Shown here: in pieces, positions 1 through 13,867 of the stretch
How positions within the stretch are numbered: position 1 is the first letter of the stretch
Layout: each line of letters opens with the position of its first letter
NCBI RefSeq assembly: GCF_000092105.1
Contig: NC_014148.1
Span: 2,070,001-2,102,000 of the forward strand
Length of the DNA stretch: 32,000 nucleotides
Source of the DNA: Planctopirus limnophila DSM 3776
GTDB taxonomy: Bacteria > Planctomycetota > Planctomycetia > Planctomycetales > Planctomycetaceae
Direction: 5' to 3'
Made by a program: the position numbers and the translations under genes
The notes under the pieces: generated by a model
Databases searched by the model: none
What the model saw: the letters and a program-made list of their open reading frames with translations, nothing else
Told to the model about the DNA's origin: nothing

Positions 1-304
1 AGGTGGAGCCGTTATCGCTTTGCTTAAACCCTTCCCAGTTGCCAGTGGGGTCGAGGTTCCAATCCTGCTTGAACGCGGTGGATGCCAGAGCGGTTTGGGT
101 GCCGTTGAGTGTGCCGCGGTGGGCGGTCTTTAACCGCTGGAGGCCGTCGTAGGTGTAGAGCCAGTCGTATTGGGCACTGTGGGCGGTGGCGATAGGGTTC
201 TTCCGCCAGATGCGGTTCGAGGCGCGGTCGTAGCCGTACTTGATGCGGTCGAGATCGGTCCCCGCTTTGTGCCAGCGGTTGTCCTTCACGCGGCCAAAGC
301 GATC
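1..304 (-). pseudogene. rhs core fragment (third rhs copy). It runs off the left edge and its 5' part is deleted relative to the 1055..3328 paralog
   Basis: nt 1-304 align collinearly with 2548-2857 (14 mismatches in the first 100 nt by hand count, one 6-nt indel). The minus-strand translation is YD/RHS-repeat sequence: FGRVKDNRWHKAGTDLDRIKYGYDRASNRIWRKNPIATAHSAQYDWLYTYDGLQRLKTAHRGTLNGTQTALASTAFKQDWNLDPTGNWEGFKQSDNGST. Homology then jumps to about 3258-3418, so about 400 nt of the paralog are missing. The conserved start position (GTG 358-360) is out of frame with the core and hits a stop after 24 codons. Confidence 0.6.
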
Positions 305-310
305 GAGGCG

Positions 311-413: not shown

Positions 414-463
414 CCGCTGGCACACAGGTCGCTCGATAACGAACAACCTGTGCCACCGAGCGG
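414..463 (-). repeat. conserved imperfect hairpin, rhs junction element copy A
   Basis: GGCACACAGGT (419-429) and ACCTGTGCC (446-454) form a stem with a 2-nt AC bulge. A basal helix CCGCT/AGCGG extends it. The loop contains CGCTCG. The same core occurs at 3375-3409, 6753-6788 and 7312-7349. Confidence 0.7.
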
Positions 464-522
464 GTGGAAAATGTGGTGGTAGGCAACTGAGAAACAAAGG
501 CAGGATGTAGCCTGCACTACGG

Positions 523-1080
523 TTAATCTCTCTCACCAATTTTGCCGTGTTTGTTAACTTCCAAAACGAATCTGCTTTCTCTTTCGGTTGTAATTTCGGC
601 TATCGCACGCTGAGCGTATGAAACAAGAGTTTCATGCGATACTCCCGATCGACTGGCAGAATTCCATCTGTTTTCTATTTCCGCGGAAGCATCATTGAAG
701 CCTCTTTCATAAAACTCAAACATCACGCCGTTGGATTGACCCGAATGAAACAAAAGTCGTTCGGTATTTCCTGCAATCTTGTTTTCAAGCGACGCTTGCC
801 ATCCATAGAAGTGGCCTTCATACCAGTCAGATTTTCCAAGACGAAGAATTGGTGGCTTCTGTCCATCTTTGTCGCTATTTGATACGATACTAGTTGGAGG
901 GATGTCTGAGGGAGCTGTTAAATCTTGCGGATAGGAGAAAATGATTTCTCGGTCTTCTCCTCGTGTCTGTCTGCCGCTTGACGTGTCGCATCCTGTCTGT
1001 ATGAACGCTGTCAGCGCAAACGCCATTGAAAGACATCGGCCATATTTACAAAAACTATTTACTCTTGTTTGCATTCGCAT
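523..1080 (-). CDS. putative exported lipoprotein, candidate immunity protein for the 1055..3328 Rhs tip
   Basis: The ORF lies directly after the rhs stop. From the internal Met at 1080 the N-terminus reads MRMQTRVNSFCKYGRCLSMAFALTAFIQTGC: a basic n-region, a hydrophobic core and a Cys, which is lipobox-like though not canonical at position -3. The region is AT-rich like the toxin tip. The start overlaps the rhs 3' end by 26 nt. No family was recognised. Confidence 0.55.
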   Translation of the reverse strand: MRMQTRVNSFCKYGRCLSMAFALTAFIQTGCDTSSGRQTRGEDREIIFSYPQDLTAPSDIPPTSIVSNSDKDGQKPPILRLGKSDWYEGHFYGWQASLENKIAGNTERLLFHSGQSNGVMFEFYERGFNDASAEIENRWNSASRSGVSHETLVSYAQRAIAEITTERESRFVLEVNKHGKIGERD

Positions 1081-3328
1081 CTCCCCATTCGGCTTGGCAA
1101 ACTGCACAGTAGGCAATCTCATTGAATCGCTTGTTATCTTCGTAAGATTTGATCTTCTCCTTAAACTCTTTGTCATTCTTCCTGAGAACTACCATTGGGT
1201 TAACGTTTCCAAATCCATTGTTTGCGTGATACCAAAGTGCATCATCAGGGTTGAAGTAGAAAAAGTCAAAATTGAAGTAGTCTCCAGCTGATGCAGGGGG
1301 CCTTGAGAGAATAGCGTTCCAGGTTTTCTTGCCATTCAGCGAGAATTTTCCATTTTTTTCATTAATTGCAATTTCACGAGCCCCTCCTGGAGTGCCGTTG
1401 TTCCAGACAATGGCTATCAATCTCGCTTCAGTTCTTGTTCCGTAAATGTTTGTTCCAAATCCTTTGCAACATTCTTTGGTTTCGTTCATGTCCTTCATTC
1501 GCAGTCGCGCCTGTTCAGGATCACGGTAGCAATGTTGTAAATCTGGCAAAAACCCGTCTCGGAGCTCGAATCCGCTTGGGTTGAGTGTGTATCCGGGGAA
1601 GCCGAGCATGCAGAAAGTTACGCCAATGCAGCCGGCTTGTGCAGTATTTATAAAGTGGCCCTTTGGGATTGATGTTTTCACAAGTTGAAAGTTTTTATTC
1701 TGCCATTGAGATAGGGTATCCCATGGGAGCAGATTTTCTGACCATTCGTCCCACCATTGATCAACTGTCAAAACATCAAGACCATAAGGGTCAATAGTGT
1801 TCAATTGATTGACACGCTCATAGAGGGAGAGTCCGTCGACGTATCTCAATGGATCTCTTCGTGTCCATTTCCCTAACTTGAAATGCAAACATCGGTAGCG
1901 GGAATCATAAATCTTTGTGTGCAGATCGTAATGTGAGCCTCCGTATGCGACGATCCATTTGTTTGTGTTAGCTGAAGATGAGAAAATTAGATCTAGTTGT
2001 TGAACTTCCCCATACGGATCATACTCAAACCGTTCTTGTACCTCGCCCGCTTCATCCACAATGGTGGTAACATTCCAATTGGCGTCCTGGAGTGCGTAGA
2101 GACGTTCGTCGAGTGTCGTGGTGGTCGTCCGGTCTCTGAGGAGGCAGTCGTCGATGTATCTCAGGCCCCAGATGTGGTGCTGGCTGAGGGTGGAACTGGA
2201 ATCTGTGCGTTCTTCGATGTTCTGCCAACCGTCCGTGAAGTAGGCGTGAGTCGTTTCATCCAGCACTCCGGAGTCGTAGTTTTTGACAACCACTCGGAAG
2301 TTTCTGGCGTCGTACTGGTACTCGGCGACCGTTTCCAGCGTGCTGGAGACTTCTTCCTCCAGTTTGACCAACCGGTTCCAGGCGTCGTAGGTGGCGGTGT
2401 AGGCTTCGTCCATCTGCTTGGGTTTGGGGATGGTGGTCATGTTGCCGACGGCGTTGTAGGCCGGGTCGGCCCAGGCACTGCCCACCGTGTTGGTGATGTC
2501 GGTGATTTCGTTCACCGGGTTAGCCGTGCGTTCTTGTTCCATGCTCCAGGTGGAGCCGTTGTCACTCTGCTTAAATCCTTCCCAGTTGCCGGTGGGGTCG
2601 AGGTTCCAGTCCTGTTTGAAGGCCGTGCTGGTGAGAGCGGTTTGGGTGTTGTTGAGGGTGCCACGGTTGGCGGTCTTGAGGCGTTGGAGGCCGTCGTAGG
2701 TGTAGAGCCAGTCGTATTCGGCACTGTTGGCCGTGGCGACGGGGTTCTTCCGCCAGATGCGGTTCGAGGCTCGGTCGTAGCCGTACTGGATGCGGGAGAG
2801 GTCAGCGTTGGTCGAGGTGTTGTACCAGCGGGAGTCCTTCACCCGGCCAAAGCGATCCAGGCCGGTGTAGATGTCGCCCGTGTCGGGATCGTTGGAAACG
2901 CCTGCCAGCGTGTACCGCAGGTTCGGTTGGGGGCTGGTTTGCTGGATGACGCCTGCCAGGCCGAGGAATTCGTAATCGACCAGGTGGGTCAGGGAGAAAT
3001 CGTCGTCGATGATGGAGCCGATGCGGCTGAGGGCATCGTTGATTTCGTTGGTGGTGCCGTAGCCGTAGGTGAGTTCCCGACCGTTGGGGTAAGTGAGGCT
3101 CAATGGGCGCACTGTGTTGGTGCTGCCGTTGGCATAACCTCGCTGCACGCTGGGTGTGGTGCCGGTATTCACGGTGCCGTCATGCTCCTGGAACGTCTGG
3201 ATCGACTGCCCAAAATCATTGTACGTGAACTGCACCTGATTAACAGCATTTCCTGAGGTGGCGGCATCGAAAACCCCTGCCGGAGAGTGATCCCCGGCAG
3301 GGGGAGTAAACTTCATGTCGATTGTCAA
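1055..3328 (-). CDS. RHS repeat protein with a variable C-terminal toxin tip and no N-terminal domain
   Basis: YD-type repeats run throughout (YGYDRASNRIW, YTYDGLQRL, YQYDARNFRVV). RHS core end: YDSRYRCLHFKLGKWTRRDPLRYVDGLSLYERVNQLNTIDPYGL. A 240-aa unrelated tip follows. The start is uncertain (TTG 3328 or ATG 3316), and codons 8-20 coincide with a terminator-like hairpin. Confidence 0.9.
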   Translation of the reverse strand: MTIDMKFTPPAGDHSPAGVFDAATSGNAVNQVQFTYNDFGQSIQTFQEHDGTVNTGTTPSVQRGYANGSTNTVRPLSLTYPNGRELTYGYGTTNEINDALSRIGSIIDDDFSLTHLVDYEFLGLAGVIQQTSPQPNLRYTLAGVSNDPDTGDIYTGLDRFGRVKDSRWYNTSTNADLSRIQYGYDRASNRIWRKNPVATANSAEYDWLYTYDGLQRLKTANRGTLNNTQTALTSTAFKQDWNLDPTGNWEGFKQSDNGSTWSMEQERTANPVNEITDITNTVGSAWADPAYNAVGNMTTIPKPKQMDEAYTATYDAWNRLVKLEEEVSSTLETVAEYQYDARNFRVVVKNYDSGVLDETTHAYFTDGWQNIEERTDSSSTLSQHHIWGLRYIDDCLLRDRTTTTTLDERLYALQDANWNVTTIVDEAGEVQERFEYDPYGEVQQLDLIFSSSANTNKWIVAYGGSHYDLHTKIYDSRYRCLHFKLGKWTRRDPLRYVDGLSLYERVNQLNTIDPYGLDVLTVDQWWDEWSENLLPWDTLSQWQNKNFQLVKTSIPKGHFINTAQAGCIGVTFCMLGFPGYTLNPSGFELRDGFLPDLQHCYRDPEQARLRMKDMNETKECCKGFGTNIYGTRTEARLIAIVWNNGTPGGAREIAINEKNGKFSLNGKKTWNAILSRPPASAGDYFNFDFFYFNPDDALWYHANNGFGNVNPMVVLRKNDKEFKEKIKSYEDNKRFNEIAYCAVCQAEWGDANANKSK
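1058..1777 (-). other. variable C-terminal (toxin) domain of the 1055..3328 Rhs protein
   Basis: It begins right after DPYGL (the Leu codon is at 1778-1780). It is visibly AT-richer than the core. It contains NTAQAGCIGVTFCM and, further on, DALWYHANNGFGN. No family was recognised by eye. Confidence 0.7.
3268..3304 (-). terminator. terminator-like hairpin inside the rhs junction element (copy B)
   Basis: Stem CCCCTGCCGG (3274-3283) / CCGGCAGGGG (3294-3303) with a 10-nt loop. On the minus strand it is followed by TTTTCGAT. Relative to copy A, two stem positions differ, and both arms changed so that pairing is preserved. Confidence 0.5.
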
Positions 3329-3360
3329 AGAGCAGAACGATCAAGATAGAGTAGCTAAAA

Positions 3361-3418
3361 CCACATGTGTTGTTGGCACACAGGTCGCTCGTAGACTACA
3401 ACCTGTGCCACTATGTGG
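3361..3418 (-). repeat. conserved imperfect hairpin, rhs junction element copy B
   Basis: GGCACACAGGT (3375-3385) / ACCTGTGCC (3401-3409) with a CGCTCG loop start. The basal helix CCACAT (3361-3366) / ATGTGG (3413-3418) differs in sequence from copy A but is still complementary. Confidence 0.7.
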
Positions 3419-3771: not shown

Positions 3772-4149
3772 CTATTCAGTGATGTTAACGCCACCGTATA
3801 ATTGAAACCATAGCTCGGGGCAGGGTGGTCGATGTTTCTTAAGACCAAAACTAGAGAAATTAAATATATTCCAGCTCATGTTTCCTGTTTCCATCGTCGG
3901 GACGCCTAATCCAGTCTGTCCACAATGTCCGTTGCGTCCATATCGCTCGTACCATGATGTGGCTGTAATACAGTTGTTAATACCCGTGTAGTATGGGTAT
4001 GGGAATTCGAAATTCTCCACAGCGTTTTGATTTTCCATCCATGCTTTAATGAGAAGCATATCATCCAATTCATCAGAAGCATACTCACCAAAGTTGATGT
4101 AGGGGGGGTCTTCCTTCTCCGCTTTGAATGCCCCAAGTGTTATTGCCAA
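3772..4149 (-). CDS. ORF overlapping the 3' end of rhs 4085..6757: either a frame-shifted continuation of the toxin tip or a separate immunity ORF
   Basis: It lies in the +1 frame relative to the rhs. That frame is open from 4221, but the only starts are TTG 4149 or ATG 4059. A C7 run (minus strand, 4102-4108) sits in the overlap, and 7->6 would fuse the two frames. The product has Cys/His and aromatic-rich sequence (NGHCGQTG, FPYPYYTG). Confidence 0.4.
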   Translation of the reverse strand: MAITLGAFKAEKEDPPYINFGEYASDELDDMLLIKAWMENQNAVENFEFPYPYYTGINNCITATSWYERYGRNGHCGQTGLGVPTMETGNMSWNIFNFSSFGLKKHRPPCPELWFQLYGGVNITE

Positions 4150-6757
4150 ACAGTGGGGCTTGAAAATGTAGTTCAGTGTATTGTTTGTTGGGAATGCCTT
4201 TTGTAAGCATGCCGTGATCTACGTTTAGGCGAATAAATTCATGGAGCTGAAAGCAGGTTTGCCTTCCGGGAGCATTTGGGTCAACGCGGATTATTCTGTT
4301 GAGGTCACACTGGGGTGTCGTTGGTGTGTGAACTTTTACACGCGGTTTAATAGGTTCGGTCTTTAATGTGTAATGATCAGCGTACCCTGTGCACCATATT
4401 CCGTACATAGTCCAGTCAAAATATGGTTCTTTCAATCCGCTAGGGTCTTTTCTCGAGGTAGAGGTATTTCGTGTATATCGCAGGAGTGAGGTGTCGCCTC
4501 CGCTAAACTCAATCGGATCTTCGCTTACGAATCTTCCCACTTCGGCGTCGTACCATCTGGCGCGGTACCAGTGGAGGCCCGTGTCTTCGTCGTATTCTCT
4601 CGCCGTGAAGGTATAATGCGGGAGGGGTTGGCCTGCTGTGCTGCCCGTGATTTGGCCGAAGGTGCTGTAGGTGAGGTGGTTGGTGACGGTGGTGGTACCC
4701 GCGTTGTGTTCGGCCACGTCGCGGATGGTGCCCAGGTGGTCGGCGAGGAGCCACTTGATGTTGCCAATGTCGTCTTCTTCGGCTAATGGCATGTCGATGC
4801 CGGGGCCGTGGAGGAATCGGGTGAGCAGGTCGCCGCTGTCATCGTGGATGAACACGCAGTCACTGGTGGTGCCTTTCGTGGTGGGGTCGAACGTGTAGTG
4901 GCGGATGTCGTTCCACGAGTTGTTGGCAGTCGAGTCCAGCTTGCGGGTAATGCGCTGGTTATGGATGTCGTAGGTGTAGGCCACTCGTTTCTGGGGCGTA
5001 TCGAGTGAGTCGCGGTGTTCGACTTGGGTCAGCCGGTTGCGGTGATCCCATGAATAGACCGTATAGTCGCCGGTGGCGACTTCCGTTTTACGGATGCGGT
5101 TGCCTTCGTCGTCGTAGAGGTATTCGTAGGTGCCGTCTTCCAGAAGCTGGTTGTTGGTGCCGGTGATGTAGCCGGTGTTCGTGCGGTTGCCGGTGAGGTC
5201 GTAGCTGTAGGCTTCATCGGGGGTCGTGGGGTGATCGGCGGCGGTGAGTTGGGCAATGGCGTCGTAGTCGTAAGCTGAGGTACCATCCAGAGTTTCATGG
5301 CTGGAGAGGCGGCGGTCGGCATCGTAGGTGTAGTAGTGCTGGGCCAGGATGGTGGCCGATTGAGCGTGCTTCAACTGCACGATCCGGCCATAATCGTCGA
5401 ACGTGAACGCGCTGTCGGCCAGTGAGGTGCCGCCTGAAACTTGTTCAAAGCGGCTGATGGCATGGGGGCGGTTCAGTACGTCGTAGCCGAACTCGACACG
5501 CTTTTCGGTGACCGAGTTACCGCCCACACTTCCCTGCTGTGTGATCTGCGTGGGCTGCCCCAACGCATTGTGGAGGTAGCTGTTGGTGAAATCGTCGCTG
5601 CTTTCGACTTGTGCCGCCAGCGAGAGGCGATTGCCAGCGCGGTTCCAGTCAGCCGTCAAGAGAACGTGGGGAACATCGTCGGTGCCGTCGTTATCGACCG
5701 TGGCGATGTGGCCGAAAAGGTCGTAAGTGTAGGCATACGCGGAGACATCGTCGGAAATCGACTGCAAGCGTCCTTCGGCATCGTAAGTTCGGCTGACGGT
5801 GTTCACAGTGCTGCCGCCGGTCTTCCAGAGTTCGGTGTCGGGTCGCCCGAGATCATCATGAACAAGTTGAATGACTCGTCCATTGCGATCGGTGCGTGTC
5901 TCTAAGTGACCAGCCGTGTTGTACGCGAAGAATCGCGATTTCCCCAAGGAATTTTCTTCTTCAATCACCCGGCCCACGCCATCGTAGCGCCAGGTGGTCG
6001 TGTTTTCTTCGGCATCAGTCAGCGAGAGTTGATGACCGGCGATATTGTAAGCCAGCGTTGTGACGGCGTCTCTTGCATCAGTGATGGTGAGGACGCGACC
6101 CAAGCCGTCGTAGGTCATCGACTCCGTTAATGCGAGGTTCGCCGGTGTGCGCTGAAGCACGTTTCCACTTTGATCGTACCAGACTTCATCGACCATCGCC
6201 GCACCCACGCTGCCGGTGGTGGGGTTGACGGCGTAGCGGCGGGATTGGTAGGGGCGGCCGAGGGGGTCGTAATCGGTTTCGATGCGGCTTAAGAGTGTGC
6301 CGGTGGGGGAGCCGTCGTAGCGTTCGCTGCGGATGAGTTGGCCGCGGAAGTCGTAGGTTTCTTTCTGGCAGAAGTTTTCTTCGCCCTGGGTGACGAGGCG
6401 GCGGCCACGGTAATCGTAGCTATACGTTGTTTCGCGCGTGGTGCTGCTATCGACGTGTTGCGTCGAGAGAATCGGGCGGCCCGCGATGTCGTATTCGGCT
6501 GCGGAGACGAGGACCGTATCATTTGACGGCCCCTCAGTGAGGGGTTGGGCCGCGGCGGGATCTGAATGGCTCGCAGAGAATGTCTCCCGCGAGCGGAAGG
6601 CCGACAAGCTGTCAATGGCGGAAGCGCCTGTGGAGCCTTGCTTAAGGAAGATTCCTGAAACATACCGCTCCGCTGCCCCACTGCCAGTGGTCGAGTCGTA
6701 TTCAGTAGTCTGGAAAAGTCCGGAGTTCGTTCGCAGGACAATGTCGCAGGGTGGCAC
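4085..6757 (-). CDS. RHS repeat protein with a variable C-terminal toxin tip; appears N-terminally truncated
   Basis: Dense YD repeats (YSYDYRGRRL, YDPLGRPYQS, MTYDGLGRVL, WRYDGVGRVI, YTYDADRRL, YLYDDEGNRI). Core end: YRARWYDAEVGRFVSEDPIEFSGGDTSLLRYTRNTSTSRKDPSGL. An AT-rich tip of 115 aa follows (4088..4432). The GTG start at 6757 comes six codons after an in-frame TAG, lies inside hairpin C, and reads straight into repeat sequence. Confidence 0.9.
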   Translation of the reverse strand: MPPCDIVLRTNSGLFQTTEYDSTTGSGAAERYVSGIFLKQGSTGASAIDSLSAFRSRETFSASHSDPAAAQPLTEGPSNDTVLVSAAEYDIAGRPILSTQHVDSSTTRETTYSYDYRGRRLVTQGEENFCQKETYDFRGQLIRSERYDGSPTGTLLSRIETDYDPLGRPYQSRRYAVNPTTGSVGAAMVDEVWYDQSGNVLQRTPANLALTESMTYDGLGRVLTITDARDAVTTLAYNIAGHQLSLTDAEENTTTWRYDGVGRVIEEENSLGKSRFFAYNTAGHLETRTDRNGRVIQLVHDDLGRPDTELWKTGGSTVNTVSRTYDAEGRLQSISDDVSAYAYTYDLFGHIATVDNDGTDDVPHVLLTADWNRAGNRLSLAAQVESSDDFTNSYLHNALGQPTQITQQGSVGGNSVTEKRVEFGYDVLNRPHAISRFEQVSGGTSLADSAFTFDDYGRIVQLKHAQSATILAQHYYTYDADRRLSSHETLDGTSAYDYDAIAQLTAADHPTTPDEAYSYDLTGNRTNTGYITGTNNQLLEDGTYEYLYDDEGNRIRKTEVATGDYTVYSWDHRNRLTQVEHRDSLDTPQKRVAYTYDIHNQRITRKLDSTANNSWNDIRHYTFDPTTKGTTSDCVFIHDDSGDLLTRFLHGPGIDMPLAEEDDIGNIKWLLADHLGTIRDVAEHNAGTTTVTNHLTYSTFGQITGSTAGQPLPHYTFTAREYDEDTGLHWYRARWYDAEVGRFVSEDPIEFSGGDTSLLRYTRNTSTSRKDPSGLKEPYFDWTMYGIWCTGYADHYTLKTEPIKPRVKVHTPTTPQCDLNRIIRVDPNAPGRQTCFQLHEFIRLNVDHGMLTKGIPNKQYTELHFQAPLFGNNTWGIQSGEGRPPLHQLW

Positions 6758-6788
6758 AGGCTGCTTGTCCGCGAGCTACCTGTGTGCC
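6753..6788 (+). repeat. junction hairpin copy C (loop orientation flipped)
   Basis: GGCACAGG (6753-6760) / ACCTGTGTGCC (6778-6788). The loop ctgcttgtccgcgagct carries GCGAGC next to the right arm, which is the reverse orientation of the CGCTCG seen next to the left arm in copies A, B and D. Confidence 0.6.
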
Positions 6789-6937
6789 GAAGGCAAAAGA
6801 AGTTTGGCTGCTGCAAGCACTGCAATACGAGTCTCTGATGATCTCAGGTGACTCAAGCAGATTTGCGGCTCTGCCAGTCCCCTCCTGTGGCGAAGCCACC
6901 CAAGTAGAAATCATAATCTCAATCGGGGCCACCTGCG
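6778..6937. repeat. repeated intergenic unit X (about 155-160 nt)
   Basis: Collinear with 7339-7491. Shared blocks: ACCTGTGTGCC..AGGCAAAAGA, GACTCAaGCAG, CCTCcTGTGG, and the distal block CCACCcaaGTAGAAATCAtaATcTCAAtCGGGGCCACCTGCG (6896-6937). Confidence 0.7.
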
Positions 6938-6989: not shown

Positions 6990-7235
6990 TCATTCAATCG
7001 TGTAGGTAATTCCGCGTGCGGTCAATTCATCACAAATAGATCTTACAATTCGATCATGGTCTGCTTTAGTAAAGACATCACTCTCATGAGGTGGAAGCCA
7101 TCCTGTTAACGAAGATTCAAATATATCGAAATCTGTCTGATTGCCATTAACACGCATTAATGCTTCTACAGAAATTTTGGCTTGCCGCCCACCTTCTTCG
7201 AAAGTGATAGCCCCGGTTGTCATGTGGACAATCAT
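6990..7235 (-). CDS. small protein (81 aa; 77 aa from the second Met), orphan immunity-like
   Basis: Clean ORF in an AT-rich segment. Sequence: MTTGAITFEEGGRQAKISVEALMRVNGNQTDFDIFESSLTGWLPPHESDVFTKADHDRIVRSICDELTARGITYTIE. Its size, position in an rhs island and the W-PP...I...I...L...GI pattern recall small alpha+beta polymorphic-toxin immunity proteins. This is from memory only and was not searched. Confidence 0.55.
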   Translation of the reverse strand: MIVHMTTGAITFEEGGRQAKISVEALMRVNGNQTDFDIFESSLTGWLPPHESDVFTKADHDRIVRSICDELTARGITYTIE

Positions 7236-7301: not shown

Positions 7302-7360
7302 CTTTGCCTATGGCACACATGTCGCTCGTCTGCAAGTCACCTGTGTGCCATAGGCAAAAG
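7302..7360 (-). repeat. junction hairpin copy D (longest, near-perfect palindrome)
   Basis: CTTTGCCTATGGCACACATGT (7302-7322) pairs with ACCTGTGTGCCATAGGCAAAAG (7339-7360). The 16-nt loop is cgctcgtctgcaagtc. Confidence 0.75.
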
Positions 7361-7491
7361 ATGCATTGTTTCCAAAACTCTCGTGGGCACCTTAAAAGGT
7401 TTCATGTTCGGCTGACTCAGGCAGGCTGCTCATCCTCTGGTCGTTTCACCACCCCGGTAGAAATCAGAATTTCAACCGGGGCCACCCTGCG
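7339..7491. repeat. repeated intergenic unit Y
   Basis: Collinear with unit X. Distal block: CCACCCCGGTAGAAATCAGAATTTCAACCGGGGCCACCCTGCG (7449-7491), with internal dyad CCGGTAGAAAT/ATTTCAACCGG. Confidence 0.7.
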
Positions 7492-7607
7492 AATTCAGCA
7501 CGAGTTTAGAAATGCTTCACGGGACTCGGCAATCGCATCGGAAAACAAGGTTTCATTAATTGGTCCTAAAAGAATGACGAGAATCATTGAGTCCAGCCCC
7601 CTTTGTC

Positions 7608-7925
7608 TTACCCGATGGGTGACTCTTGCTTCGTTGGATTGTCAAATGGAAAGAGCGAACGAAATGCATAAGTTTGGACGCTAGGAAGTGCGTGATGCGA
7701 CAACTCTCTAAGACGCCGAATGAATGCAACAGTGTTGTATCTCTCTGCCGATATTTCGCTCGTAATTAATGTTCCAATATTGACGAGATCATCATTATCA
7801 GACAGCAACAGCCGCAGCAACTCTTCTACATCCCTGCTTTCACGAAACTGATCCACCAAACGTGTCAATCCATCGACTCCATCGGCTCCGCTGTTGACGA
7901 TTTCTAATACTTCATCTTCTATCAT
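7608..7925 (-). CDS. small helical-repeat protein (105 aa from Met at 7925), orphan immunity-like
   Basis: AT-rich ORF. Sequence: MIEDEVLEIVNSGADGVDGLTRLVDQFRESRDVEELLRLLLSDNDDLVNIGTLITSEI..., acidic and HEAT/ARM-like in pattern. No family was recognised with certainty. Confidence 0.55.
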   Translation of the reverse strand: MIEDEVLEIVNSGADGVDGLTRLVDQFRESRDVEELLRLLLSDNDDLVNIGTLITSEISAERYNTVAFIRRLRELSHHALPSVQTYAFRSLFPFDNPTKQESPIG

Positions 7926-8029
7926 TGTGTATCTTCTCCAGTGCACTTTTAAGTTTCTGAAGGAATCCCCTCTCCTATGCTATACGTCTTTCATGAAAGG
8001 TGCGTTCGAGTTCGGTTCCCTTTCAAGTT

Positions 8030-8072
8030 CACAGGGTGGCCCCGGTTGAAATCCTGATTTCGACCGAGGTGG
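8030..8072. repeat. third, inverted copy of the distal block of units X/Y
   Basis: CACAGGGTGGCCCCGGTTGAAATCCTGATTTCGACCGAGGTGG is the reverse complement of the consensus CCACC...GT.GAAATCA..ATTTCAACCGGGGCCACCCTG.G. Confidence 0.7.
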
Positions 8073-8210
8073 CTTTGCAGGGTGAACCAAATTGTGCGTC
8101 AAAGACAGTCCAGAGCTGCAAGCATGGCACAGAGTTGCCTGCATTTCACACTGAAAGTTTAAATTTCATGGATGCGTATGAGTCCATTCGATTCAGACCC
8201 ATGTTAACTG

Positions 8211-12949: not shown

Positions 12950-13867
12950 CTACGTTGACGAACGAGATTCGGTAGATGATACAGGTTCTTGTGAAACAGG
13001 AACTGCTGGCAATTCGTTGACATCAAAGACTTGAACATTGACTTCCATGTGATTGAAGGCATTGGATGGGCCTGACCAGTAGCCGGCCAGTGGCGAGGCT
13101 TTGTCCTGCTCACGAGAAACACCGACCGAGACATGTTCAGCTCCAGCGAGCTTATTATTTGTCGGATCAAAGCCACGCCATCCCGCACCCGGAAGATAGA
13201 TTTCGGTCCAGGCATGTGTTGAGCCATGTTGCTCGGCGCCCATCTGGACATAACCCGTCACAAATCGTGCCGCAAGCCCCCAGTGCCGGGCGGCTTCCAT
13301 CATCAGGACAGCGTAATCTCGACAGGAACCTGTTCCTAAGCGAATCGTTTCACACGGAAGCTGAACGCCCGGTTCTTCCCGATGCATATACTGAAACGAC
13401 TCATAAATGCGTGTATTCAGAGTGGTTAGTAAATCGGCGGTATTGAGGAGTTGTCCCGGTTGATACAGTGTAGAAAGCCATTCATGAATCACCGCGCCGT
13501 CAGCAGGATAGCTGGGTAACCGGAATGGGAACAATTCGACCTGCTCATCAGCACTGTACTGAAATGGATAGGACTGTCCGATGGGATCAATCGAACAACT
13601 CAGGCCATAATCATCATAGAGATCAACTTCGACTTCGCTATAGAAACGAAGTTTACTGGCAGGTTCAAGAAAGTTAATAATTGCTATGCTGTTGCCGTAG
13701 ATATCGCGAACCCAGCGAACTTCTGCAGCCGGCTCGATTTCCAACCTGGAAGAAATAATATGCAGGTCATGACCCTCGCGGGGCCTGACCATGGCACGAT
13801 GCGGGCCGAGCGTTACTGGTTCGTTGTAGTGATATTCGGTGTTATGAATAATCCGGATGCGTTTCAA
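12950..13867 (-). CDS. transglutaminase-family protein (N-terminal bacterial TGase-like region plus TGase core)
   Basis: MKRIRIIHNTEYHYNEPV start (TTG, GAGGA 6 nt upstream). Core Cys/His/Asp context: GTGSCRDYAVLMMEAARHWGLAARFVTGY ... HAWTEIYLPGAGWRGFDPTN. Confidence 0.9.
   Translation of the reverse strand: MKRIRIIHNTEYHYNEPVTLGPHRAMVRPREGHDLHIISSRLEIEPAAEVRWVRDIYGNSIAIINFLEPASKLRFYSEVEVDLYDDYGLSCSIDPIGQSYPFQYSADEQVELFPFRLPSYPADGAVIHEWLSTLYQPGQLLNTADLLTTLNTRIYESFQYMHREEPGVQLPCETIRLGTGSCRDYAVLMMEAARHWGLAARFVTGYVQMGAEQHGSTHAWTEIYLPGAGWRGFDPTNNKLAGAEHVSVGVSREQDKASPLAGYWSGPSNAFNHMEVNVQVFDVNELPAVPVSQEPVSSTESRSST

Follow-up and report, generated by a model that had tools for sequence, protein, structure and literature searches.

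For Rhs proteins it is established that a shell encloses the C-terminal toxin tip, and in the characterized ones the motif DPYGL marks the boundary of autoproteolysis; arrays of silent or exchangeable rhs C-terminal cassettes belong to the classical picture of these systems. The Rhs toxin Tse5 (RhsP1) of Pseudomonas aeruginosa, which requires type VI secretion (T6SS), acts on the inner membrane through a pore-forming peptide and is paired with a membrane immunity protein. In the Tae/Tai systems, a cysteine enzyme of the papain superfamily acts in the periplasm of the target and is neutralized there by an exported, often lipid-anchored immunity protein. Among polymorphic toxins as a whole, the immunity proteins are nearly all cytoplasmic, and secreted, transmembrane (TM) or lipobox-bearing ones accompany toxins that act at the surface, such as the secreted or TM proteins coupled to L,D-peptidase toxins and the Imm65 lipoprotein coupled to Tox-JAB-1 (PMC3482391). 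Domains of the microbial transglutaminase (MTG) type, Pfam family PF09017, occur as a toxin in EAT14 of Chitinophaga rupis, an effector associated with an extracellular contractile injection system (eCIS) and composed of DUF4157, LysM and PF09017 domains, which kills Escherichia coli and yeast, its toxicity requiring its Cys, Asp and His (PMC11297309). No other paper in the literature searched mentions PF09017, and EAT14 is the sole PF09017 toxin to have been tested. Here we analyze a locus of Planctopirus limnophila DSM 3776, lying in a stretch of 32,000 nucleotides (NC_014148.1, 2,070,001 to 2,102,000 of the forward strand; “the window”, to whose positions all coordinates refer), in which the Rhs gene Plim_1602 ends in a 240-aa tip (1058..1777, minus strand) identified below as an MTG-like (MTG/KalbTG-type) toxin domain, and is followed by Plim_1601 (523..1080, minus strand), coding for a 185-aa predicted lipoprotein and candidate exported immunity protein.

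The Rhs open reading frame (ORF) extends on the minus strand from a TTG at 3328 to 1055 and codes for 757 aa; its GenBank version, Plim_1602 (ADG67435.1, 753 aa, an exact match recovered as P0041), starts at the ATG at 3316. Its core fragment (1778..3328) matches PF05593 RHS_repeat with E 2.4e-5, and the last part of that fragment (1778..2023, aa 436-517) is the Rhs-associated core domain TIGR03696 (E 5.5e-9; 36.4 bits at a cut-off of 32.5), ending in the DPYGL motif at coordinate 1778. The tip follows directly and is closed by the TAG stop codon at 1057..1055. The downstream ORF, 100% identical to Plim_1601, runs from an ATG at 1080 (MRMQTRVNSFCKYGRCLSMAFALTAFIQTGC) to 523 and overlaps the rhs ORF by 26 nt (1055..1080), counting the rhs stop codon. 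In an earlier note on this DNA, made from the sequence alone, the Rhs ORF, the DPYGL boundary, the tip coordinates, the overlap and an in-frame Met at 1026 had all been read correctly; its 186 aa for the downstream ORF is the number of codons including the stop, the protein itself having 185 residues. A block of low guanine-plus-cytosine (GC) content at 440..2040 begins ~90 aa before the end of the core and continues through the tip and the lipoprotein gene (GC ~0.41-0.47, about 0.44, as against ~0.60 in the core), and marks an exchangeable, compositionally foreign cassette. Because of this shared drop in GC, and because the tip has ~20 homologs and the lipoprotein four, the two reading frames are more than chance.

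By eye and by single-sequence search the tip belongs to no recognizable family, just as the note had it: used as a single query it gives no significant match in Pfam, NCBIfam, PADLOC, the PDB sequences or a plasmid collection (tblastn), and its single-sequence AlphaFold model has a predicted local distance difference test (pLDDT) value of 30.6. The best weak match of this kind among the PDB sequences, 5m6q with E 0.2, later proved real. A word-index protein search with the tip likewise came back empty, even though the collection contains both Plim_1602 and a representative 98% identical to it, P0006. An exhaustive phmmer search of 1.84 billion representatives yielded 25 matches to the tip, ~20 of which are genuine, P0006 being a 98%-identical representative of the tip protein itself; P0016, P0021, P0027 and P0028 were rejected on inspection as false positives, being repetitive proteins. 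It is the profile of this family that overturns the absence of a recognizable affiliation, for it retrieves the transglutaminase of Kutzneria albida (KalbTG, 5m6q) with E 2.8e-23 and the Streptomyces MTG structures 1iu4, 3iu0 and 9ihs at ~6e-16 (E 6.2e-16 for 1iu4). The match consists of two stretches, 9-82 and 98-206, that together span ~183 of the 212 profile positions and bring the Cys, Asp and His into register. PF09017 is recognized in six of 18 family members, with a best E of 1.4e-12; the tip itself has no match to PF09017 in Pfam at E <= 1. When provided with the family alignment, AlphaFold (AF2) models the tip at a pLDDT of 81.4 and a predicted template-modeling score (pTM) of 0.82, and Foldseek returns just four matches to this model at E < 1e-3, one to KalbTG and three to MTG entries, all of probability 1.00. 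The top match is 5m6q_A (KalbTG; E 9.4e-7, TM-scores 0.55/0.59); against MTG, which is larger, the TM-score reaches only ~0.35. The tip domain begins directly after DPYGL and can be aligned with mature KalbTG from about residue 5-9 onward, so that there is no pro-peptide. We are therefore close to certain that the tip is a distant relative of the microbial transglutaminases with the MTG fold. A classical transglutaminase-like gene that lies 11 kb away (12950-13867, minus strand; PF08379 and PF01841) was considered and set aside, as it belongs to another Pfam family and has no similarity to the tip.

The alignment with MTG, with residues counted from its printed form, pairs Cys50, Asp171 and His184 of the tip with Cys64, Asp255 and His274, respectively, and these three are the predicted acyl-transfer center. 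Cys50 (codon 1628..1630, minus strand), the predicted nucleophile, sits in GCIG within NTAQAGCIGVTFCM; Asp171 (codon 1265..1267, minus strand) in NFDFF; and His184 (codon 1226..1228, minus strand) in WYHAN within DALWYHANNGFGN. The note had singled out these Cys and His motifs as suggestive of a papain-, transglutaminase- or amidase-like enzyme. The homology to MTG vindicates that guess, the flagged Cys corresponding to Cys64 and the His of HAN to His274; the spacing, put at about 150 residues, is in fact 134, and the third residue, Asp171, had escaped notice. Across the family alignment the motifs G-C-[IV]-G, NC[YF], E-C-C, N-[FY]-D-[FY], W-x-H-A-N and a C-terminal C-x-x-C stand out, and the only two invariant columns are Asp171 and Ala185. 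The catalytic His column is occupied by His in most members and by Gly in five of the 19 aligned sequences that cover it. The essential partner of the Cys in MTG is the Asp, which has assumed the part otherwise played by the His (PMC10318531); this accounts for an invariant Asp171 alongside a His replaced by Gly in five members. The P. limnophila tip is intact and has every conserved residue of the family. A subfamily comprising P0024, P0034 and P0036 has, when compared with P0013, jointly lost the cysteines of NCY and ECC and one or both of those of CxxC while keeping the Cys of GCIG, a pattern which suggests that the additional cysteines form one structural unit, be it a zinc site or disulfides.

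About 12 of the tip relatives stand directly after the DPxGL or DYLGL of Rhs proteins, one of which is at least 1491 aa long. Related-locus profile searches with one alignment (A3) recovered only Planctopirus hydrillae among genomes and none in metagenomes, and those with a further alignment (A5) found three loci. The family thus far comprises ~20 unannotated sequences, from Planctopirus and metagenomes only. Its distant member P0034 (391 aa, with a disordered N-terminus; L009 2516-3784, JGI 3300037110) is not part of an Rhs protein; the genes in the same row encode a Gln_deamidase_2 (PF18626) protein and a leucine-rich repeat (LRR) protein that has a signal peptide.

The signal peptide of Plim_1601 (988..1080, minus strand) has an n-region with a charge of +4, followed by the 12-residue hydrophobic core CLSMAFALTAFI of mean hydropathy 2.17 and by QTGC with Cys31. 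The gene has four homologs at 51-58% identity, all of which keep the hydrophobic N-terminal segment and TGC; the charged n-region and the h-region are likewise conserved, in five homologs, and UniRef names the protein “Lipoprotein”. In the lipobox-like sequence I-Q-T-G-C, the -2 and -1 positions and the Cys conform to [LVI][ASTVI][GAS]C, with TGC invariant, but the -3 position does not. GenBank places the start at a second ATG, at 1074 (183 aa), with GGAG 6 nt upstream. The note had allowed that the true start might be the Met at 1026, with no export; this is unlikely, as M1, Q4, T5 and the charged n-region upstream of it are conserved and GGAG precedes the ATG at 1074. Going by these sequence features, export of Plim_1601 is well supported, and its lipidation is only probable. 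No match to the Plim_1601 family was obtained in Pfam (including its Imm families), NCBIfam or PADLOC, nor to any PDB sequence.

A wider survey of the genes following the tip covered the window and 10 further related loci with readable DNA, the P0009 locus being left out, and took as the sign of export a 12-residue hydrophobic stretch with a mean hydropathy of >= 2.07 in the first 60 aa. All 11 downstream ORFs possess such a stretch, as compared to three of 13 control ORFs in the window; in the array described below, the other three immunity candidates all lack it. These partners fall into at least seven families without detectable mutual similarity, the remaining ones too having no match to a Pfam family, and several of the 11 overlap the toxin gene. 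The most telling case is that of P0007, the closest relative of the tip outside Planctopirus (37% identity): its partner, a 190-aa ORF with a 25-nt toxin overlap and an N-terminal membrane anchor, is a homolog of Plim_1601, scoring 34.9 bits with the hidden Markov model of the lipoprotein family and E ~1e-6 in BLASTP. The partners of P0020 and P0022 are mutually homologous small lipoproteins (…AISSC, …FLQGC) and that of L017/L018 starts with …LLLSGAC; those of P0036 and P0034 have cleavable-looking signal peptides, and those of P0014, P0015 and P0013 have N-terminal or single TM segments.

The presence of partners with export or anchor signals at 11 of 11 loci, together with the overlapping homolog behind P0007, supports exported immunity against a toxin acting outside the cytoplasm. 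Both proposals of the note in this respect, a lipoprotein-type exported immunity candidate next to the tip and a target beyond the cytoplasm, are thereby strengthened. Since the tip and its relatives always precede a gene for an exported or membrane-anchored partner, we consider it probable that the tip acts elsewhere than in the cytoplasm and is countered by an exported immunity protein; our confidence in any particular chemistry is far lower. The note was also right to call a periplasmic target unusual for an Rhs tip, given the overwhelming preponderance of cytoplasmic tips and immunity proteins (PMC3482391). This locus would then probably represent a rarity, an Rhs toxin acting outside the cytoplasm.

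We accordingly propose the following scheme. Recombination through the conserved core would join the cassette to a full-length rhs gene, whose shell would enclose the tip until autoproteolysis at DPYGL frees it. From the fold and the location of its partner, the tip would be delivered into the envelope of neighboring bacteria, where Cys50 could attack a γ-glutamyl amide with formation of a thioester, the substrate being a protein Gln or possibly the γ-D-Glu-meso-diaminopimelate (mDAP) of peptidoglycan; the latter possibility would make the toxin similar to the Tae amidases. Passing the acyl group to an amine would then produce a cross-link, and passing it to water would result in deamidation or cleavage, in either case with damage to the envelope. 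Plim_1601, judging from the gene overlap, the co-occurrence and the export signals, would be exported, anchored to lipid at Cys31 and neutralize the tip in the periplasm, thereby protecting siblings. Taken as a whole, the explanation in which an MTG-like tip is delivered to the envelope and countered by exported Plim_1601 is the best of those considered, and we lean toward it with some confidence. Only tentatively would we go further and envisage a family of Rhs-delivered toxins that kill from the periplasm by transglutaminase chemistry and are met by repeatedly recruited anchored inhibitors; on such a still speculative extension, killing would proceed by cross-linking or deamidation of envelope proteins, or by attack on or re-linking of the γ-glutamyl bonds of peptidoglycan. 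The literature searched contains no account of interbacterial toxins that work in this manner.

The genomic setting of the pair is that of an array. The Plim_1602 ORF opens inside the region of Rhs-core homology, with ~517 aa of core before the tip and no N-terminal plug or delivery domain; hence, what the note had described as an Rhs toxin with its tip does have an Rhs core and a tip, and is an N-terminally truncated orphan cassette rather than a complete toxin. The neighboring Rhs fragments begin at other points of the core, and the segment 3328..523 is one cassette in an array of orphan rhs C-terminal modules. The start of the next orphan fragment (2..307, minus strand) is 86% identical to aa 157-260 of the Plim_1602 ORF. 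On the other side, a second Rhs fragment of 890 aa (4085-6757, minus strand) has a different, short low-GC tip, and its core shows no tblastn similarity to that of Plim_1602 at E < 1e-5; it is overlapped by a 125-aa ORF without an export signal (3772-4149, minus strand). At the head of the array are an orphan Imm74 immunity gene (PF15603, E 2.4e-32; 6990-7235, minus strand) and an acidic 112-aa ORF (7608-7946, minus strand), neither with a toxin gene before it, so that the array starts with immunity genes only and adjoins an aminotransferase gene. Housekeeping genes follow beyond the 112-aa ORF, among them the aminotransferase gene and those for a sigma factor and an AcrB/HlyD efflux pair.

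Two kinds of intergenic repeats are interspersed in this array. One, of ~120 nt, lies directly upstream of two orphan Rhs fragment starts (314-435 and 3270-3391, 78% identity) and has related inverted copies at 6745-6808 and 7303-7361, the last with a near-perfect hairpin (7303-7322/7339-7358); the other, of ~45 nt, is present in three copies (6890-6933, 7449-7493 and 8028-8078). Neither kind matches a tRNA or an Rfam family; both might serve the array as sites of recombination or regulation.

The same tip-lipoprotein cassette is retained in P. hydrillae JC280 (NZ_LYDR01000154.1, L012) at 91% nucleotide identity. There, a TGG->TGA change at Trp182 (L012 6544-6546, corresponding to 1232-1234 of the window) interrupts the tip right before HAN, and Cys104 is replaced by Ser, the lipoprotein gene being intact with four amino-acid changes. 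Either the toxin is decaying there while its immunity gene is kept, or the nonsense codon is an error of sequencing.

Several observations tell against an MTG-like toxin acting in the envelope. The lipobox is atypical, as every homolog of Plim_1601 has Q or H at its -3 position instead of L, V or I. The extra conserved cysteines (NCY, ECC and CxxC) could form a zinc site instead of disulfides and are indecisive as to the compartment; we rejected them as proof of an oxidizing one, the arrangement C-x(0-8)-C ... C-x2-C being just as compatible with a zinc site. The window shows neither a full-length rhs gene nor a secretion system, whether T6SS or other, and in view of the truncation of Plim_1602 and the nonsense codon in P. 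hydrillae the cassette may be silent or decaying. In the starkest form of this argument it is a non-functional relic, truncated and unexpressed, with a decaying tip and with selection acting, if at all, on the lipoprotein gene alone. An ORF that starts within the Rhs core without an N-terminal domain, its place among other fragments, preceded in the window by orphan immunity genes and by no full-length rhs gene, and a P. hydrillae tip broken off at Trp182 while its lipoprotein gene is intact would all be expected of a relic. Nevertheless, we regard this as somewhat doubtful: the P. limnophila tip is intact with every conserved family residue, and orphan Rhs and contact-dependent inhibition (CDI) cassettes are known to be reactivated by recombination. 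The two species differ by eight synonymous and six non-synonymous codons, numbers too small to settle the matter.

The remaining alternatives accept a functional MTG-like domain and differ on what it does and where. The four homologs of Plim_1601 are solitary, standing beside ParE, Peptidase_S9 or Ank/Kelch genes, and a search for tip remnants near them found none; this is as expected of orphan immunity genes and also compatible with an independent function. Such occurrences without a tip nearby are also what one would expect if the tip acted in the cytoplasm of the target and the exported proteins downstream were not classical inhibitors, blocking entry at the membrane for example, or were unrelated neighbors. 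Most Rhs tips indeed act in the cytoplasm (PMC3482391), and EAT14, with its PF09017 domain, is toxic when E. coli or yeast express it in their cytoplasm (PMC11297309). We nonetheless judge a cytoplasmic site unlikely in the face of 11 of 11 downstream ORFs from at least seven unrelated families that bear export or anchor signals, several of them overlapping the toxin gene, a rule which matches what Zhang et al. describe for surface-acting toxins (PMC3482391); moreover, EAT14 is delivered by another kind of system, for which eukaryotes are at least some of the targets. It is alternatively conceivable that the fold is right and the enzyme is a hydrolase, either a peptidoglycan γ-D-glutamyl-mDAP endopeptidase or amidase, or a protease, operating in the manner of Tae and NlpC/P60. 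Cell-wall amidase effectors such as those of the Tae/Tai systems are as a rule countered by periplasmic immunity proteins. In the papain-like superfamily, to which MTG belongs, hydrolases are numerous among the transglutaminase-like members (PMC10318531), and the same caveat is raised for EAT14 (PMC11297309). Yet the biochemically characterized members of the fold, which are only the Streptomyces MTG and KalbTG, are transglutaminases, and there is no NlpC/P60 or Tae structure among the Foldseek matches with E < 1e-3, nor a Pfam match of the tip; we hence rate a hydrolase as rather unlikely. Least probable, in our estimation, is that the family targets eukaryotes such as protist grazers, with the exported downstream proteins as co-effectors or accessory factors. 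What speaks for it is P0034, which is not fused to Rhs and whose locus, with its LRR and Gln_deamidase_2 genes of host-directed appearance, resembles the effector islands of bacteria that live with a host, along with the effect of EAT14 on human cell signaling (PMC11297309); small, diverse and tightly coupled downstream genes and orphan arrays are instead the signature of interbacterial toxin-immunity systems (PMC3482391), and the array in the window contains Imm74 as well.

Neither Rhs cassettes nor MTG enzymes are new, and one toxin of the MTG type is known already; in the literature that we searched there is no description of an MTG-type toxin that is Rhs-borne or acts in the periplasm. What we believe to be new is the combination of an unannotated family of MTG-like Rhs tips with systematically exported or membrane-anchored partners. 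If the envelope-directed action that we favor is borne out, cross-linking or deamidation of the envelope would join the known modes of interbacterial killing, and the partners would be natural inhibitors of MTG-type enzymes, which are used in protein labeling and food technology, accompanied by compact new transglutaminase scaffolds. The two genes Plim_1602 and Plim_1601, until now those of “hypothetical proteins”, also gain a testable function.

Set against the known systems, the logic proposed for the tip and Plim_1601 is the same as that of Tae/Tai; the Tae effectors differ in having a fold of the NlpC/P60 subfamily, in not being Rhs-borne and in their proven activity on peptidoglycan, which for the tip is only a possibility. 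Tse5/RhsP1 resembles the proposed tip in being delivered by Rhs and in having a non-cytoplasmic site of action and immunity, with the distinction that it employs a pore-forming peptide whereas the tip is a predicted enzyme. In EAT14 as in the tip, a delivered effector has a domain of the MTG type for its toxic C-terminal part. It is delivered by a contractile injection system, whereas the tip family is Rhs-borne; it is active in human cells and also toxic within the cytoplasm of both E. coli and yeast, and the accessible part of its description mentions no immunity partner, in contrast to the exported partners of the tip family (PMC11297309). The toxins cataloged by Zhang et al. have the RHS or polymorphic-toxin architecture in common with the tip, secreted or lipobox-bearing immunity proteins being rare exceptions among them, and their Tox-TGase has the classical AvrPphE/animal-type transglutaminase core, whereas the tip is of the MTG type (PMC3482391). 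The microbial transglutaminases of PF09017, KalbTG (5m6q) and the MTG of Streptomyces mobaraensis (1iu4, 3iu0), have the fold, profile homology over nearly the whole domain and the Cys, Asp and His positions in common with the tip; KalbTG is also close to it in size (225 versus 240 aa), and both enzymes act outside the cytoplasm, as the tip presumably does. Unlike them, the tip has extra conserved cysteines (NCY, ECC and the C-terminal CxxC) and stands behind an Rhs core, whereas KalbTG and MTG follow a signal peptide and a pro-peptide; and where these are secreted cross-linking enzymes, the tip is paired with a putative immunity gene and is presumably a toxin.

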